Part shown: positions 41,758-47,125 of the stretch, one piece after another
Position numbering within the stretch: position 1 is the stretch's first letter
Layout: each line of letters begins with the position of its first letter
Source: an uncultured delta proteobacterium
GTDB lineage: Bacteria > Myxococcota_A > Polyangia > Polyangiales > Polyangiaceae
Assembly (NCBI GenBank): GCA_963841435.1
Contig: CAWJCS010000005.1
Span: forward strand, 960,001-1,024,000
Length of the DNA: 64,000 bases
Direction: 5' to 3'
Made by a program: the position numbers and the translations under genes
The notes under the pieces: generated by a model
The model's database searches: none
Told to the model about the DNA's origin: nothing
Seen by the model: the letters and a program-made list of their open reading frames with translations, nothing else

Positions 41758-42549
41758 ATGCTCGTTTCCTGCCTCGCCGTCCTTCTCTTCGCGGGCTCCG
41801 CGCTCGCTGCGGGGCGCGTGCAATGGAAGAGTAAATCCTTCAAGGAGCGCAGCGACAAGGCGTGGATGCTGGAGCTTGCCATCTACCTGCCGCGCGCCCC
41901 GGACGTAGCGTACGTTCCGATGAAGTTCGAGTTCGAGCTCATCACCTACTTCGAGCGCGCTCTGCTCGACGGTCACGACGGCCCCGTGGAAAACAAGACG
42001 CCCATCAACGGCCGGCAACCGCTGATCGAGAGCGTGGACGTGGGCTTCATGGACGCGAGCACCTCGAACATCGAGAAGCGAACGCGCTTCAGCTTCAAGG
42101 TGAAGCGCGACCTCGGCTACGAGGCCGGCGAGTACAAGGTGACGATCCGCGACACGCGCAACGGGCAGGTCGTGGGCTCTCCGACGACCATCACGTTCGA
42201 CGGCGAGAACAACGTCATCAATCGGCGCTCGATCGTGTTCCAGGGCGACGACGGCAAGAAGAAGAAGAAGAAGGACAAGCCGAAGGACGAGGGCGCCTCC
42301 GACGACGAGAACAAGGACAGCGCCTCGGCTGACTCCGAGAAGAAGTCCGACGAAGGTTCGGGCGAGGGCTCGGACGACGGGGCGAGCGACGAAGGCTCGG
42401 ACAACTCCGGCGGTGACGACCCCCCGCCCGTCGAGAAGAAGAGCGGCTGCGGTTGCCGCGTGCCCGGCTCGCCGGGGTCAAAGGCTCCGGGCGGCGTGCT
42501 CGCGCTCGGCCTGGCGGCGGCGTTCCTCGCGCGTCGGCGGACTCGCTAG
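41758..42549 (+). CDS. MYXO-CTERM sorting-domain surface protein
   Basis: Signal peptide, Lys/Asp/Ser low-complexity linker, C-terminal KKSGCGCRVPG...GVLALGLAAAFLARRR. Confidence 0.85.
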   Translation: MLVSCLAVLLFAGSALAAGRVQWKSKSFKERSDKAWMLELAIYLPRAPDVAYVPMKFEFELITYFERALLDGHDGPVENKTPINGRQPLIESVDVGFMDASTSNIEKRTRFSFKVKRDLGYEAGEYKVTIRDTRNGQVVGSPTTITFDGENNVINRRSIVFQGDDGKKKKKKDKPKDEGASDDENKDSASADSEKKSDEGSGEGSDDGASDEGSDNSGGDDPPPVEKKSGCGCRVPGSPGSKAPGGVLALGLAAAFLARRRTR

Positions 42550-42609
42550 CGCTGCTAGGCTCGATGCGTCCGGACGTCGCGGTCGCCGACCGACGCCGCA
42601 AGAGCCCAC

Positions 42610-43363
42610 ATGATTCCGATCAGCGACGACAACCCGACGCTCCGTTTTCCACTCGTGACGACCGGGCTGCTCGTCGCGCTCGGCGCGGTCTGGGTGCTCG
42701 TCCAGGGCGCCGGGTTCAGCGAGGCCGCGCTGAGCGCGAGCGTTTGCAACCTCGGCCTCGTGCCGGGAGAGCTCACGAAGCTCGCCCCGCTCGGCACCGC
42801 CATCCCGCTCGATCGTTCGCACGTCTGCGTCGTCAACAACGAGGCCATCAACGTGCTGACGCCCCTCACGTCGATGTTCCTGCACGGTAGCTGGGGTCAC
42901 CTGCTCGGCAACGCGCTGTTTCTGTGGGTCTTCGGCAACAACGTCGAGGACAGCATGGGGCGCTCTCGCTTCCTGGTCTTTTACCTGGTGTGCGGGCTCG
43001 CGGCCGCGGCGGCGCAGGTCGCGATGTCGCCCGCGTCGCCCGTGCCGATGGTCGGAGCTTCGGGGGCCATCTCCGGCGTGCTCGGCGGCTACCTCGTGCT
43101 CTATCCGCGCGTCAGGGTGAACATCCTCTTCATCCTCATCATCTTCATTCGCGTCATCAAGCTACCGGCCTACCTGGTGCTGCTCTGGTGGATCGGCCTT
43201 CAGCTCCTGACTGCGACGTTCCGGCGTCGAGTCCGGCGTCGCCGTCTGGGCGCACATCGGGGGGTTCGCTGCCGGGCTCGTCCTCGTCAAGTTCTTCGAA
43301 AATCCCGCGCTCGTCCACGAGCGCGATCGCGTCCGGCACCGCCTGCATCCCGGCTATCCCTGA
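42610..43363 (+). CDS. Rhomboid intramembrane serine protease, apparent frameshift near 43215
   Basis: MIPISDDNP, SMFLHG...HLLGN, VGASGAI (catalytic Ser); the catalytic His motif GVAVWAHIGGF lies in another frame ending at TGA 43361-43363. Confidence 0.85.
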
Positions 43364-43387
43364 AGCGCGCCCAGGCGCGCCCCCCGG

Positions 43388-44620
43388 TCACTCCGTGAGG
43401 TGCATCCACGTTTCGCAGTCGAAGGCGGGAGCGTTTGGGTCCTTCGCCGAGGGCAGGAAGATGCGCCCCGGTGCTTCGCCGATAGGCGGAATCGAGTGGC
43501 AGGCGCCGCAATTGCCGGCGGGGGGCGGGCAGGGCATCTCGATGCGCTCGCCCCGATACTCGAGGGCCACGCGAAAGCCCTCTGGGAGCGGCGTGAGGGT
43601 GTAAAAGTTGCCGACGGCGTTCGTCGTCAGCTTCTCGACGAGCATCTCGTCGGGTGCCATCAGCATCACACTCACGCCGGGCACGCCCTGGCTCGTGGCC
43701 GCGTCGCGTGAGGGAAAGACGGTGCCGGCCGCGCTCCAGCGAGGGGCCGTGGGGTACTCCGAGTGCTCGGCGTGGCAGCGCAGGCAGTCGTCGCCGGGCT
43801 GCATCGTCGGGCCCACCATGAAGCCGAAATCGTCCTTGGCGTCGCTCGCGCAACCGGTCGCGAGCGACGCGAGCGCCATCAGTGCCACGACCCAGCGCTG
43901 CCTCACCCAGCGCGACACGGCCTCTGCCGCCCGCGCGACGGCGTCCGGCTCGCGAAACGACTCGCACACCTCGTCGAAGGAGGCACCGCGCGCGGCTCGT
44001 TCGAGGGCCACGGCTTCGTCCTCGGACAGCGGCTCGTGCGTGACGCCGAAGCGCCGCCGCCACACGGCCACCGCGATGCGCCGTGTTTTGCCGGCGCCGC
44101 TCGCCGGATCGCGAAATAGCTCGAGCGCGCGCTCGGACACTTCGAGCCGCCTGAGGTCCGGCGAAAGGGCGAGCCGCTTCGACGGCGCGTCCGGCTCCGC
44201 AAAGTCCTCCGCGCGCGCCGCGGACTCCGCATCGGGCGCGATCAGCGCATCGAGCCGCGCCCACTCGAGCCGTGCCAGGTCGATGATTGCATCCCCGGGG
44301 CGCTCGGCGTCGGGAAGCTCGGCGAGAAATGCCGCGAAGCGTTCGCCCACCCGTTCGATGGCGGGCGAGCGCGACGGGTGACGCATGAGGTACCCGACGC
44401 CGAGCGTCTCGAAGCGTTCGGCTCCGACGCACTCGACGACGCGCTCGAACGTCTCCCGCAGCACGCCGAGCTTGCGCGTCACGAGCGCCGAGCGATAGAT
44501 ACCGAGCCGCTCGGCGGCCGTGAGGCGACCGCCCGAAACGACGTGCTCCTCGGGAGCCGGGGGCGGCTCGGACGCGTGCAGCGTCTCCCAGAGCCACGTT
44601 TCACGCTGCGAAAGTCGCAC
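43388..44620 (-). CDS. DUF2063/BufC-HvfC-type MNIO partner fused in frame to a di-heme c lipoprotein-like domain
   Basis: RLGIYRSA, YL..HPS.S..I..VG..F..FL, DLARLEWAR; then WVVALMALASLATGC, CLRCH and CGACH. Confidence 0.82.
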   Translation of the reverse strand: MRLSQRETWLWETLHASEPPPAPEEHVVSGGRLTAAERLGIYRSALVTRKLGVLRETFERVVECVGAERFETLGVGYLMRHPSRSPAIERVGERFAAFLAELPDAERPGDAIIDLARLEWARLDALIAPDAESAARAEDFAEPDAPSKRLALSPDLRRLEVSERALELFRDPASGAGKTRRIAVAVWRRRFGVTHEPLSEDEAVALERAARGASFDEVCESFREPDAVARAAEAVSRWVRQRWVVALMALASLATGCASDAKDDFGFMVGPTMQPGDDCLRCHAEHSEYPTAPRWSAAGTVFPSRDAATSQGVPGVSVMLMAPDEMLVEKLTTNAVGNFYTLTPLPEGFRVALEYRGERIEMPCPPPAGNCGACHSIPPIGEAPGRIFLPSAKDPNAPAFDCETWMHLTE

Positions 44621-45434
44621 CCAGCACCTCGCTTTCCACCGCCTTTACCCGCTCCATTTCCTGCTCGAGCTCCTCGAGGGTCGGCACGTTGTCGTCCCAC
44701 TCGACGATCGCCGGCACGCGACCGAAGCGCCTGAGCACGTGCCGGTAGAGCTCCATGACGGCGTCCGGGACGCGCGAACCGTGGTCGTCGATCGCGTGGG
44801 TTCCGTGGTCGGTGTGGCCGGCGAGATGAAGCTGGCGCACCCGCTCGACGGGCAGCGTCGCGACGAAATCGGTGGGCGAGAGCCCGTGGTTCTTGGCGTT
44901 GACGATCACGTTGTTCACGTCGAGGAGAATGAAGCAGTCCGCGCGCTCGGCGACGGCGCCGAGAAACGCCGCTTCACCGAGCTCGTTTTCCGGGAACTCG
45001 AGATAAGTCGAGACGTTCTCGACGAGGATGCGCTCACCCAGACGGTCCTGGACCCTCTGGATGCGCGCTGCCACGTGCACGAGCGCCTCCTCCGTGCGCG
45101 GCAACGGCCAGAGATCGTGGGCGTAGTGGCCGCGCTCGGTGCCGAAGCACAAATGATCCGAGACGAAGGCCGCGTCGATGCTCCGCCGCAACCGCGCGAG
45201 CTCGTCGAGGTAGCCGTCATTCAGGGGATCGACACCCCCGAGCGACAGGGAGACTCCGTGCAACGCCACGTCGGAGTCGCGGCGCACGCGTTCCAAAACG
45301 GCGCGAGGCCGTCCGCCTCGCCAAAGGAAGTTCTCCGTCACCACCTCGACGAGCCCGGCGGGCGAGCCGCGCTCGAGGAGCTCGGTGTAGTGGGGCACCC
45401 TCAGGCCGTAGCCATGGTGCCCGCCGTCCCGCAT
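44601..45434 (-). CDS. Multinuclear non-heme iron oxidative enzyme (MNIO, DUF692; BufB/HvfB type)
   Basis: GYGLRVPHY, EVVTENF, HGVSLSLG, SDHLCF, HDLWPLP, ENVSTY, LLDVNN, HLAGH, IDDHG, EWD. Confidence 0.95.
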   Translation of the reverse strand: MRDGGHHGYGLRVPHYTELLERGSPAGLVEVVTENFLWRGGRPRAVLERVRRDSDVALHGVSLSLGGVDPLNDGYLDELARLRRSIDAAFVSDHLCFGTERGHYAHDLWPLPRTEEALVHVAARIQRVQDRLGERILVENVSTYLEFPENELGEAAFLGAVAERADCFILLDVNNVIVNAKNHGLSPTDFVATLPVERVRQLHLAGHTDHGTHAIDDHGSRVPDAVMELYRHVLRRFGRVPAIVEWDDNVPTLEELEQEMERVKAVESEVLGATFAA

Positions 45435-45709
45435 CAGCTCTGAACCGTACCGCCGAGCGCCTCGCAATCGGCCGCGGTCTTCGTGTAGGCCCAGCCCATG
45501 CCCATGCACTCGTTCAAGCCCTTGCACTCGTTGCTGCTCGGACCGCCGGCGCACTCGCTCATGCCGGCGCACTCGTTGCCGCCCAGGCACTTGACCTGCT
45601 GCGCAGCGGTGCCCGTGGGCTCGTCATCGCTGCCAGAACAACCCGTCATGACCAAAAGGCCTGCCACCGCGGCCGCGACGGCCGCACCCTTTCGGAGCTC
45701 TCGATGCAT
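45434..45709 (-). CDS. Bufferin-type (BufA2-like) Cys-rich RiPP precursor, lipoprotein form
   Basis: Signal with VMTGC lipobox; KCLGGNECAGMSECAG...NECKGLNECMGMGW...C..LGG; stop overlaps the MNIO start. Confidence 0.85.
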   Translation of the reverse strand: MHRELRKGAAVAAAVAGLLVMTGCSGSDDEPTGTAAQQVKCLGGNECAGMSECAGGPSSNECKGLNECMGMGWAYTKTAADCEALGGTVQS

Positions 45710-45922
45710 GGTGAACCTGCTTTGGATGCCGGGATCGCGAGCAGCGAAAGCGCTGCTCGAACCGACACCGCGCGTTCCCTATGGCAGCCGTTCGCGAGCG
45801 GTTACCGGGGCGGCGACGAGTACCGCGTTTTCCTGCCAATCGAGCGGAATTGAAGCCAAATTCGGCGACGATTCCTGCGCGTGGCCGCCCGAGGGGCGGG
45901 GCCGGCCCCCGTTACGCGGTGC

Positions 45923-47125
45923 TCACGCGCGGCTGACCTGCTCGACGATCACCCCGATGGCCCGTTCGAGCACGTCTTCGGGCGTGAGCAGGCTCACGAC
46001 GGCATGCGGCGGACCGATGAAATCGAAGAAATACCCCGGCTGCACGAGGACCCCCTTCGCGAGGAAAAGGAGCGACCACTCCTCGTCGCTCAGGGTCGCG
46101 GGCAAGCGCAACACGGCATACCAGCCGCCCTCGACAGGCAGCACCGAGATCGGAGACCCCGCGCACGCCGCGGCGAGTTGGGCGACGTTTCGCGCGGAGC
46201 GCGCGCGGATGGCGTCCCGCGCGGTGCCCCGCGACGCGAGCAGGGCCGGCAGGGCGCGCTGCACGGCCGTCCCCGGCGAAAGAAACGTGTCGGCAACGAC
46301 CTCGAGCCGGGCGAGCGCTTGCTCGACGAGGGGGGCTTCGCCGCCGAGCGTCATCCAGGCAAGCTTTGCCTGCGGCAGCGCCGCCACCTTGGAGAGCCCG
46401 TCGAGCGCCACCGTCAGGAGCCCCGCTGATTCGAGCGCGGATTTCGCGCGCCGCGGGTCGTCGCCGAGCGCGTACTCGCCGAATACCTCGTCGGAGATCA
46501 ACGGCAGACCGAGCGCGCCGAGGCGTTCGAGCCCGGCTCGGTCGAGGAAGCTGCCCGTGGGGTTGTTCGGGCTCACCACGACGATGGCGCGGGCGCGTGG
46601 GGTGCGGACGCGCTCGACCTCCGCTACGTCGAGAAACCAGGCGCCGTCGAAGCCCAGGCGGTACGTCATCGGCGTGACGCCCTCGAGGCGCGCGAGATGC
46701 TCGAACAGCGGATAGCTCGGCGCCGGCACGAGCACCTCGTCGCCCGGGTCGCAGAAGAGCTTGAACGCGTAGGCGTACGCTTCGCTCGTGCTCGCCGTGA
46801 GCACCACGTGCCCGGGGTCCACGGCGAGACCGCGCTCGCGCCACAGCGTCGCCACGGCGTCGCGCGCCGTCGCGAGCCCGAACGGCGCCGGCTCGTACGC
46901 GAGGTCCGTCGCGGCCTCGGCGAGCGCAACGCGCGTGGCCTGGGCGTACGGGATGCCTGCCTCGGTGGGATTGGACACCGTGAGATCCGAGAGCGGTAAA
47001 GCGCGCCCTCGCGCGGCGGCGAGCGCGACCGCGAGGCGATTGGGAGCGAGCTCGACGGCGCTCCGTTGCGAAAACGGGCCCGTTTCAGCAGCGGGCGGGG
47101 GTGCCCCGCGGTCGGAACGCGTCAC
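45923..47125 (-). CDS. PLP-dependent aminotransferase class I/II
   Basis: DLTVSNPT, PSYPLF, VSPNNPTG, ISDEVF, GLSK, GYFFD. Confidence 0.9.
   Translation of the reverse strand: MTRSDRGAPPPAAETGPFSQRSAVELAPNRLAVALAAARGRALPLSDLTVSNPTEAGIPYAQATRVALAEAATDLAYEPAPFGLATARDAVATLWRERGLAVDPGHVVLTASTSEAYAYAFKLFCDPGDEVLVPAPSYPLFEHLARLEGVTPMTYRLGFDGAWFLDVAEVERVRTPRARAIVVVSPNNPTGSFLDRAGLERLGALGLPLISDEVFGEYALGDDPRRAKSALESAGLLTVALDGLSKVAALPQAKLAWMTLGGEAPLVEQALARLEVVADTFLSPGTAVQRALPALLASRGTARDAIRARSARNVAQLAAACAGSPISVLPVEGGWYAVLRLPATLSDEEWSLLFLAKGVLVQPGYFFDFIGPPHAVVSLLTPEDVLERAIGVIVEQVSRA

Follow-up and report, generated by a model that had tools for sequence, protein, structure and literature searches.

A Buf2-type bufferin operon with a predicted di-haem lipoprotein domain fused to its maturation partner in an uncultured member of the Polyangiaceae

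We analysed a stretch of 64,000 nucleotides (hereafter the window; positions 960,001 to 1,024,000 of contig CAWJCS010000005.1, assembly GCA_963841435.1) from an uncultured delta proteobacterium of the family Polyangiaceae, and within it an operon predicted to make a bufferin, a ribosomally synthesised and post-translationally modified peptide (RiPP). Between positions 43388 and 45709 on the minus strand, open reading frames (ORFs) reveal three genes overlapping head to tail, as the original prediction had described them: a 91-aa precursor, a DUF692 enzyme of the MNIO family, and a DUF2063 partner. The frame of the third gene runs through a segment resembling a lipoprotein signal peptide into a domain with two CxxCH motifs, which we call Cyt. 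The features are as follows.

45434..45709, minus strand: bufA2, the 91-aa bufferin-2 precursor, with six core Cys and a lipobox Cys; matches NF050166.
45638..45709, minus strand: lipoprotein-type signal peptide of BufA (residues 1-23) and lipobox Cys24 (codon 45638-45640), then the acidic linker SGSDDE.
44601..45434, minus strand: bufB, 277 aa, the MNIO (DUF692) bufferin maturase; matches PF05114 and NF050167.
43388..44620, minus strand: bufC::cyt, a single ORF including its stop codon, 410 aa; the same fusion is found in 14 homologous proteins.
43913..44620, minus strand: BufC part (residues 1-236), a helical DUF2063 domain plus an alpha/beta domain resembling a RiPP recognition element; predicted cytoplasmic.
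43850..43912, minus strand: internal lipoprotein-signal-like segment (residues 237-257), made up of RWVRQR, the hydrophobic stretch WVVALMALASLATG and Cys257.
43391..43849, minus strand: Cyt domain (residues 258-410), a beta-sandwich flanked by two CxxCH motifs; predicted periplasmic.
43772-43786, minus strand: first CxxCH motif of the Cyt domain, CLRCH.
43496-43510, minus strand: second CxxCH motif of the Cyt domain, CGACH.

The most likely start of bufB is the ATG at 45434, which has one base in common with the bufA stop codon, and bufC::cyt begins at a GTG at 44620, overlapping bufB by 20 nt, with its homologues starting at the same residue. Matches to the MNIO/BufB, DUF2063 and BufA2 profiles indicate that the three frames are not chance ORFs. 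Specifically, BufB matches the MNIO family PF05114 with an E-value of 1.9e-94 and passes the cut-off of 310 bits for the MNIO_BufB model NF050167, at 319.7 bits. Within the third protein, DUF2063 (PF09836; 53.9 bits, cut-off 27.2) covers the first 100 residues, and the BufC part reaches 44.3 bits against the HvfC model NF050145, under the cut-off of that model. An AlphaFold model of the third protein (mean predicted local distance difference test score, pLDDT, 70) contains a helical, an alpha/beta and a beta-sandwich part, the last being separated from the other two by a stretch of low confidence. In the AlphaFold2 model, residues 1 to about 240 match NGO1945 (PDB 3dee; E 8.4e-6, template modelling score 0.74 on the target), and the BufC part also matches TglI in 8hi7; because of these two matches, the BufC part is a complete partner protein.

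The precursor matches the BufA2 model NF050166 over profile positions 2-78 of 79 with 56.2 bits (E 2.9e-15), just below the cut-off of 60. Its sequence reads MHRELRKGAAVAAAVAGLLVMTG-CSGSDDE, followed by the six core Cys; judged by sequence pattern, its N-terminus is a Sec-type signal peptide with a charged n-region, a hydrophobic stretch, and a lipobox-like end, VMTG-C. The same architecture recurs in the precursors encoded beside Cyt in related loci. All six core Cys are invariant in the 12 aligned Cyt-linked precursors (the window counted), and the 11 related precursors whose N-terminus is intact all have a lipobox followed by an acidic linker. With the window counted, all 12 match the BufA2 model, seven above its cut-off and five, including that of the window, just below, and every Cyt-linked precursor with an intact N-terminus is a lipobox BufA2 (12/12). 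The original prediction of a bufferin-type MNIO operon is borne out, and more precisely the locus very probably encodes bufferin biosynthesis of the Buf2 type.

The two motifs CLRCH and CGACH fall within the 154 residues that start at Cys257, and the domain that carries them, which the original prediction had read as a di-haem domain at the end of the operon, proved to be real and conserved. In an alignment of 37 Cyt domains with a mean column identity of 30%, both CxxCH motifs keep their C, C and H without exception (37/37), as they do in 16/16 relatives of a second alignment; L020 and L038, which are cut by contig ends, and L032, which has a broken frame, were left out of the 37-domain alignment. 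Methionines 6 and 9 residues upstream of the CxxCH motifs are conserved at 90% or more across the 37 domains, and Met273 and Met362 are invariant, together with both motifs, in the alignment of fused proteins. The genome carries cytochrome c assembly genes, with three matches to PF01578.

The tie between Cyt and the bufferin genes takes two forms. A large protein collection holds 14 further proteins (P0002-P0015; 302-415 aa, three of them truncated at the N-terminus) with the same in-frame fusion at 47-55% identity. In addition, the order lipobox bufA2, bufB, bufC, cyt was found in 11 genomes (L005, L007, L008, L009, L012, L018, L051, L053, L056, L057, and L058) and 10 metagenome contigs (L089-L095, L109, L126, and L150), of which L094 and L109 may come from the same organism. 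In these 21 loci the genes are unfused, with cyt lying in a different frame from bufC and abutting or overlapping its end, and in all of them except L058 the separate cyt has its own start codon before a lipoprotein signal peptide. In L058 (5248-6453) no ATG, GTG or TTG lies near the Cyt signal peptide and bufC ends nearby in the other frame, which may reflect a frameshift, a fused form, or an unusual start. The bufC-cyt pairing occurs in at least 10 of 201 sampled genomes of the window's family, and the genome of the window is the only one with a full-length single-frame form, both counts being taken among the 150 of 278 matches listed. The expectation that the CxxCH domain is conserved beside homologous MNIO loci was therefore upheld in one sub-group (21 loci with Cyt as the next gene and 15 fused proteins); most BufB loci of the family lack Cyt. 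On the sequences compared, Cyt is conserved as an accessory within one sub-group and is no core gene of bufferin clusters.

A tree of Cyt domains (128 rows and 133 columns, weakly resolved; repeat loci, matches shorter than 100 aa, and eight identical rows were left out) placed 13 fused proteins in one clade with a support of 89 in the Shimodaira-Hasegawa-like approximate likelihood ratio test (SH-aLRT). The window and P0002 lie unresolved beside this clade, among unfused bufferin-linked forms, and the bufC::cyt fusion may have had a single origin. Several loci depart from the common arrangement. In L057 (3808-5676) one open frame encodes BufB and BufC as an MNIO-DUF2063 fusion, with the Cyt lipoprotein encoded by a gene of its own behind it; P0050 carries the same PF05114 and PF09836 pair. 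Two Cyt domains stand in tandem after bufC in L150. A gene for an extracytoplasmic function (ECF) sigma factor and one without a confident family match follow Cyt in L007 (7347-8715) and L053 (330-1663), the latter gene giving one sub-cut-off MFS_1 match in L007; this pair recalls SigF/NrsF of Caulobacter, with no match to the NrsF family.

The junction of the fusion retains the layout of a lipoprotein signal peptide, in that residues 237-257 read RWVRQR-WVVALMALASLATG-C. Cys257 is invariant in all 15 fused proteins, where the residue at position -1, read by eye from the alignment, is G or A, and the internal segment occupies the position of the N-terminal signal peptide of separate Cyt genes. 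A gene for LspA was found in the genome. An internal start that would yield a separate Cyt protein is unsupported, though still conceivable: the best candidate, a GTG at 43904-43906, has only a distant AGAGG with a 14-nt spacer, and a start at the ATG at 43877-43879 would leave no n-region. Literature searches on internal lipoboxes found nothing relevant.

Beyond the bufferin loci, Cyt belongs to a wider group of proteins. Scans of genome contigs yielded 39 Cyt-alone loci, and those of metagenome contigs 183 relatives, 80 of which were kept; read frame by frame, most of the 39 genome-contig copies start with their own lipoprotein-type signal peptide. In the AlphaFold model of the domain (pLDDT 87.6), a CxxCH motif lies on either side of a beta-sandwich. 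Fold searches returned generic transthyretin, CnaB and CarboxypepD_reg sandwiches only (Foldseek E-values of 7.6e-3 or higher, VIA Z up to 8.0), matches that are uninformative on the function of Cyt and leave room for a missed relative. The sub-threshold matches among the 37 aligned domains were to Cytochrome_C7 and Paired_CXXCH_1 (32/37) and to CarboxypepD_reg (30/37), and a search of the ESM Atlas returned only clusters named 'hypothetical protein', mostly from Myxococcota. Two relatives are embedded in multi-CxxCH proteins, L013, whose protein carries six further CxxCH motifs and ends in the Cyt domain, and L033, with the domain after another CxxCH domain; in L006 the domain is followed by an extension of roughly 250 aa. 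Stand-alone relatives adjoin other c-type cytochromes in five loci (L013, L015, L020, L024, and L036). Their neighbours are otherwise varied (YceI in two loci, DUF3570 in two, and many unrelated genes), and among two neighbours per side of the 39 loci, 142 proteins in all, there was no recurrent partner. In L010 (6444-9392) and L040 (2558-4102) stand-alone Cyt adjoins large secreted proteins with Cu-binding_MopE motifs. Taken as sequences, these proteins are predicted to be di-haem c lipoproteins of an undescribed and uncurated family found mostly in Myxococcota. The original prediction was thus supported in part: it had missed the retained lipoprotein signal peptide, the existence of Cyt as a separate gene in most relatives, and this wider stand-alone family.

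Two features that had been called unusual, the lipobox of the precursor and the missing DoxX gene, turned out to be commonplace. BufB-type MNIO proteins are present in 102 of 121 sampled genomes of the window's bacterial family. Among the 30 best BufB loci of the family, examined with 1.5-kb flanks, 23 have a lipobox precursor as judged by eye, no clear precursor being recovered from the other seven, and DoxX is present in one. The DoxX family PF07681 has no match on the window's contig, the four matches of the genome lying on contigs C1, C2 and C3, and tblastn gave no DoxX match in any Cyt-linked locus. The founding buf2 cluster of Caulobacter vibrioides, as described in PMC11626156, also has no bufD/DoxX, and about 16% of Buf2 precursors have been predicted to be lipoproteins (PMC12452194). 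A lipobox and a missing DoxX are ordinary features in light of the Caulobacter cluster, this percentage, and our sample of 30 loci. The idea that Cyt replaces DoxX was set aside, as DoxX is rare in the family anyway. The genome of the window has four MNIO loci, one of which (L001, on contig C3) has the order DoxX, BufA2-like, BufB, BufC and a precursor without a lipobox. In most BufB-linked precursors of the family (L059-L088) a lipobox precedes a core that is CCKGKNECKGKGGCK-like or rich in Ser, Gly and Cys, unlike that of the six-Cys type linked to Cyt.

The operon sits in a segment of variable occurrence, described by two further features.

42550..45922, no strand assigned: 3.4-kb segment with the rhomboid gene and the buf operon; absent between the same flanks in same-genus genomes.
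45710..45922, minus strand: 213-nt intergenic region between the aminotransferase stop and the bufA start; presumed promoter region.

Within this segment the operon and a convergent rhomboid gene lie between a MYXO-CTERM protein gene and an aminotransferase gene. DNA matches place the same two flanks 277-908 nt apart in seven of 10 same-genus genomes, the other three being broken by contig ends; the two flanking genes of L175 are separated by 2 nt. One genome of the genus carries an unfused four-gene locus elsewhere (L173, the same locus as L007), whose products are 34-58% identical to those of the window. Because the segment is absent in same-genus genomes and an unfused locus lies elsewhere in one, the buf locus is accessory and patchy. 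The MYXO-CTERM protein (41758-42549; TIGR03901, 31.3 bits) lies just upstream of the rhomboid-family protease (42610-43398). The rhomboid ORF ends in some 60 Arg-rich residues and shares 11 nt with the 3' end of bufC::cyt; it may in fact stop earlier. A consensus scan of 43000-46200 found no sigma-70-like site, and terminator-like sites no more often than expected by chance.

The nearest known system is the buf2 cluster (bufA2-bufB2-bufC2) of Caulobacter vibrioides, which has the same order of precursor, MNIO and DUF2063 partner as the window (PMC11626156). Both that founding cluster (BUF_6/12Cys) and the window have a six-Cys core, a Sec-type signal peptide and no DoxX (PMC11626156). The window differs in that its signal peptide has a lipobox and its partner carries a lipoprotein domain with two CxxCH motifs, which in relatives is the next gene; moreover, no SigF/NrsF pair lies beside the window locus, whereas an ECF sigma gene follows Cyt in L007 and L053. 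Published work on Buf1 provides the functional background: BufB and BufC suffice to form its thiooxazoles, the peptide is exported by Sec, and it binds Cu2+ and, more tightly, Cu+ (PMC11626156). Neither modification nor copper tolerance in Caulobacter requires DoxX, the only putative redox component of bufferin clusters (PMC11626156).

Other systems share single aspects of this arrangement. MNIO RiPPs have been shown experimentally to be lipidated through Lgt, LspA and Lnt (PMC13056109). DybA and NedA resemble the window in combining a lipobox precursor with cytoplasmic MNIO modification followed by export and lipidation, and differ from it in their ChrH/DybH-type chemistry (PMC13056109). The same source also lists non-RiPP lipoproteins in bufferin clusters, and none of the classes named in its text is a cytochrome. 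NGO1945 and TglI have the same two-domain fold as residues 1 to about 240 of the third protein; they are soluble proteins of about 200-270 aa without a membrane segment or periplasmic domain, unlike the protein of the window. Fusion proteins of Buf1 with Cytochrom_C, and of Buf1 with Cytochrom_C and FGE-sulfatase, have been reported, and as in the window they tie a bufferin system physically to a periplasmic haem c domain, in their case a class I cytochrome c (PF00034) on the precursor itself (PMC12452194). In the window, by contrast, an unrelated beta-sandwich CxxCH domain is fused to BufC, or encoded after it in relatives. Methanobactin operons with MbnH and MbnP are likewise copper-binding MNIO RiPP clusters that encode a periplasmic di-haem protein. 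MbnH is a di-haem peroxidase of the MauG/CCP type with about 400 aa, and a weak CCP_MauG match was obtained for only two of the 37 Cyt sequences. In the literature searched, which did not extend to the supplementary tables of PMC13056109, neither a DUF2063-cytochrome fusion nor the Cyt lipoprotein was found described.

We propose that the locus is a Buf2 operon equipped with a predicted di-haem lipoprotein that serves as a periplasmic electron carrier, the best overall explanation of these observations, to which we give a probability of about 0.45. By analogy with the Caulobacter system, BufB and the BufC part would convert the central Cys of BufA2 to 5-thiooxazoles in the cytoplasm, and the modified BufA2 would be exported by Sec. 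Because of its lipobox, BufA2 is proposed to be lipidated and kept on the periplasm-facing membrane as a copper chelator. In the third protein, BufC would lie inside and the haem domain outside, with the short hydrophobic segment between them embedded in the membrane; a cytoplasmic BufC with a periplasmic Cyt would be the only topology compatible with haem attachment. As the lipobox is conserved and the hydrophobic stretch is about 14 residues long, we infer that Lgt and LspA may still process the fusion, releasing a lipid-anchored cytochrome. A cleaved fusion would give the same two products as the two-gene form, and bufferin and cytochrome would both be lipid-anchored on the periplasmic face of the membrane. 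We tentatively suggest that Cyt is a dedicated periplasmic one-electron carrier, exchanging electrons with bufferin-bound Cu(I)/Cu(II) or with thiooxazole thiols. The part in Cu(II)/Cu(I) handling that the original prediction had put forward would thus be plausible. Electron exchange with copper-bufferin would be the likeliest role given the repeated coupled or fused arrangement and the published fusions of Buf1 to Cytochrom_C. A complex prediction of the Cyt domain with two haems and the BufA core scored 0.00 and counts neither way. The full conjunction, in which BufC is joined through an internal lipoprotein signal peptide, cut by Lgt and LspA, to a new-family di-haem lipoprotein, and in which that lipoprotein switches the copper of a lipid-anchored bufferin between Cu(I) and Cu(II), is a speculative and rather doubtful proposal.

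Several observations weigh against this reading. Roughly 100 other Cyt loci have no MNIO in the available sequence, many of their contigs being short, and since their contexts are varied, Cyt is not specific to bufferins. Conversely, BufA2-like lipobox loci without Cyt are known (L066, L068, L050, L055, and L174), and the domain was found in none of the 30 top-scoring BufB loci of the family within their 1.5-kb flanks; because most BufB loci and similar lipobox BufA2 loci lack it, Cyt is dispensable for bufferin production. Its sequence reached no Pfam or NCBIfam family, giving only sub-threshold matches limited to the motifs, and a search of PDB sequences with a Cyt profile gave CxxCH-level matches only (best E 0.0019) and no solved relative. 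As no curated cytochrome family or solved relative was reached, haem binding is predicted from the motifs only. The lipobox of the fusion, LATG-C, is non-canonical at -3 (A), as is that of BufA (M), and the hydrophobic segment of the fusion spans only about 14 residues; both VMTG-C and LATG-C fit the broad lipobox pattern. Lastly, a search of sequencing runs returned two soil-metagenome runs, with 0.06-0.07 of words, and no RNA run.

Three other roles for Cyt can be weighed against that of an electron carrier. The domain could be a periplasmic copper-binding protein instead of a cytochrome, with Met, Cys and His ligands set on a beta-sandwich like those of copper chaperones, passing copper to or from the bufferin. 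A beta-sandwich without the classical cytochrome c fold, a conserved Met upstream of each CxxCH in the setting of a copper-peptide operon, the lack of a match to any curated cytochrome family, and the Cu-binding_MopE-motif proteins beside two stand-alone relatives (L010 and L040) would all suit such a protein. Yet the His after the second Cys, invariant in both motifs in 37/37 domains, is a haem c signature that CxxC copper sites do not need, relatives occur within multi-CxxCH proteins and beside other cytochromes, and the genome has a cytochrome c maturation (Ccm) system, of which Sec-exported CxxCH motifs are substrates, so that we think this role quite unlikely. It is also improbable that Cyt acts in maturation, through a periplasmic oxidative step on BufA2 such as formation of the CysI-CysVI disulfide or a further modification. 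Cyt does belong to the operon and is fused to the maturation partner BufC, and the first and last Cys of Buf1 and Buf2 form a disulfide after export (PMC11626156); against this, the modifications of Buf1 require no more than BufB and BufC, both in vitro and in E. coli (PMC11626156). Moreover, most Buf2-like loci of the family have no Cyt. Periplasmic disulfides of the BufA2 kind are usually left to general Dsb systems.

Alternatively, Cyt may be a general electron-carrier lipoprotein that came to lie downstream by chance, the fusion being a neutral loss of the stop codon between overlapping genes, with no function in common. The Cyt family occurs mostly without an MNIO in available sequence and in varied contexts, the locus is accessory and patchy, and because the genes overlap in unfused loci, a one-base change can fuse bufC and cyt. 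What makes such an origin hard to credit is that adjacency persists in loci with only 35-40% identity to the window in Cyt and 26-37% in BufC, that the fused form has been kept in 15 proteins differing by about 50%, and that all linked precursors are of one subtype, lipobox BufA2. A remaining concern is that the fused frame of the window is an assembly frameshift and the organism has two genes: all 21 related DNA loci inspected are unfused, and the window's genome stands alone with its full-length single frame among the 150 of 278 matches listed from 201 family genomes. This is very unlikely, as 14 independent predicted proteins from several sources have the same in-frame junction in an unbroken alignment.

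The bufferins rank with the largest families of RiPPs, and their understood role is that of a passive copper buffer in the periplasm. In this context, a sub-group of bufferins appears to have recruited a dedicated, predicted two-haem lipoprotein, which one lineage has welded to the maturation partner. The comparison has also brought to light an uncharacterised family of small beta-sandwich CxxCH lipoproteins that is common in Myxococcota, and bufC::cyt provides a natural test case for the processing of an internal lipobox. The recruitment of Cyt suggests that copper or the thiooxazole thiols undergo a redox step, which can be tested. More generally, its tie to BufC hints at electron transfer in how some bufferins work, and if the proposed cycling of copper is true, bufferins would gain a redox function beyond passive chelation.

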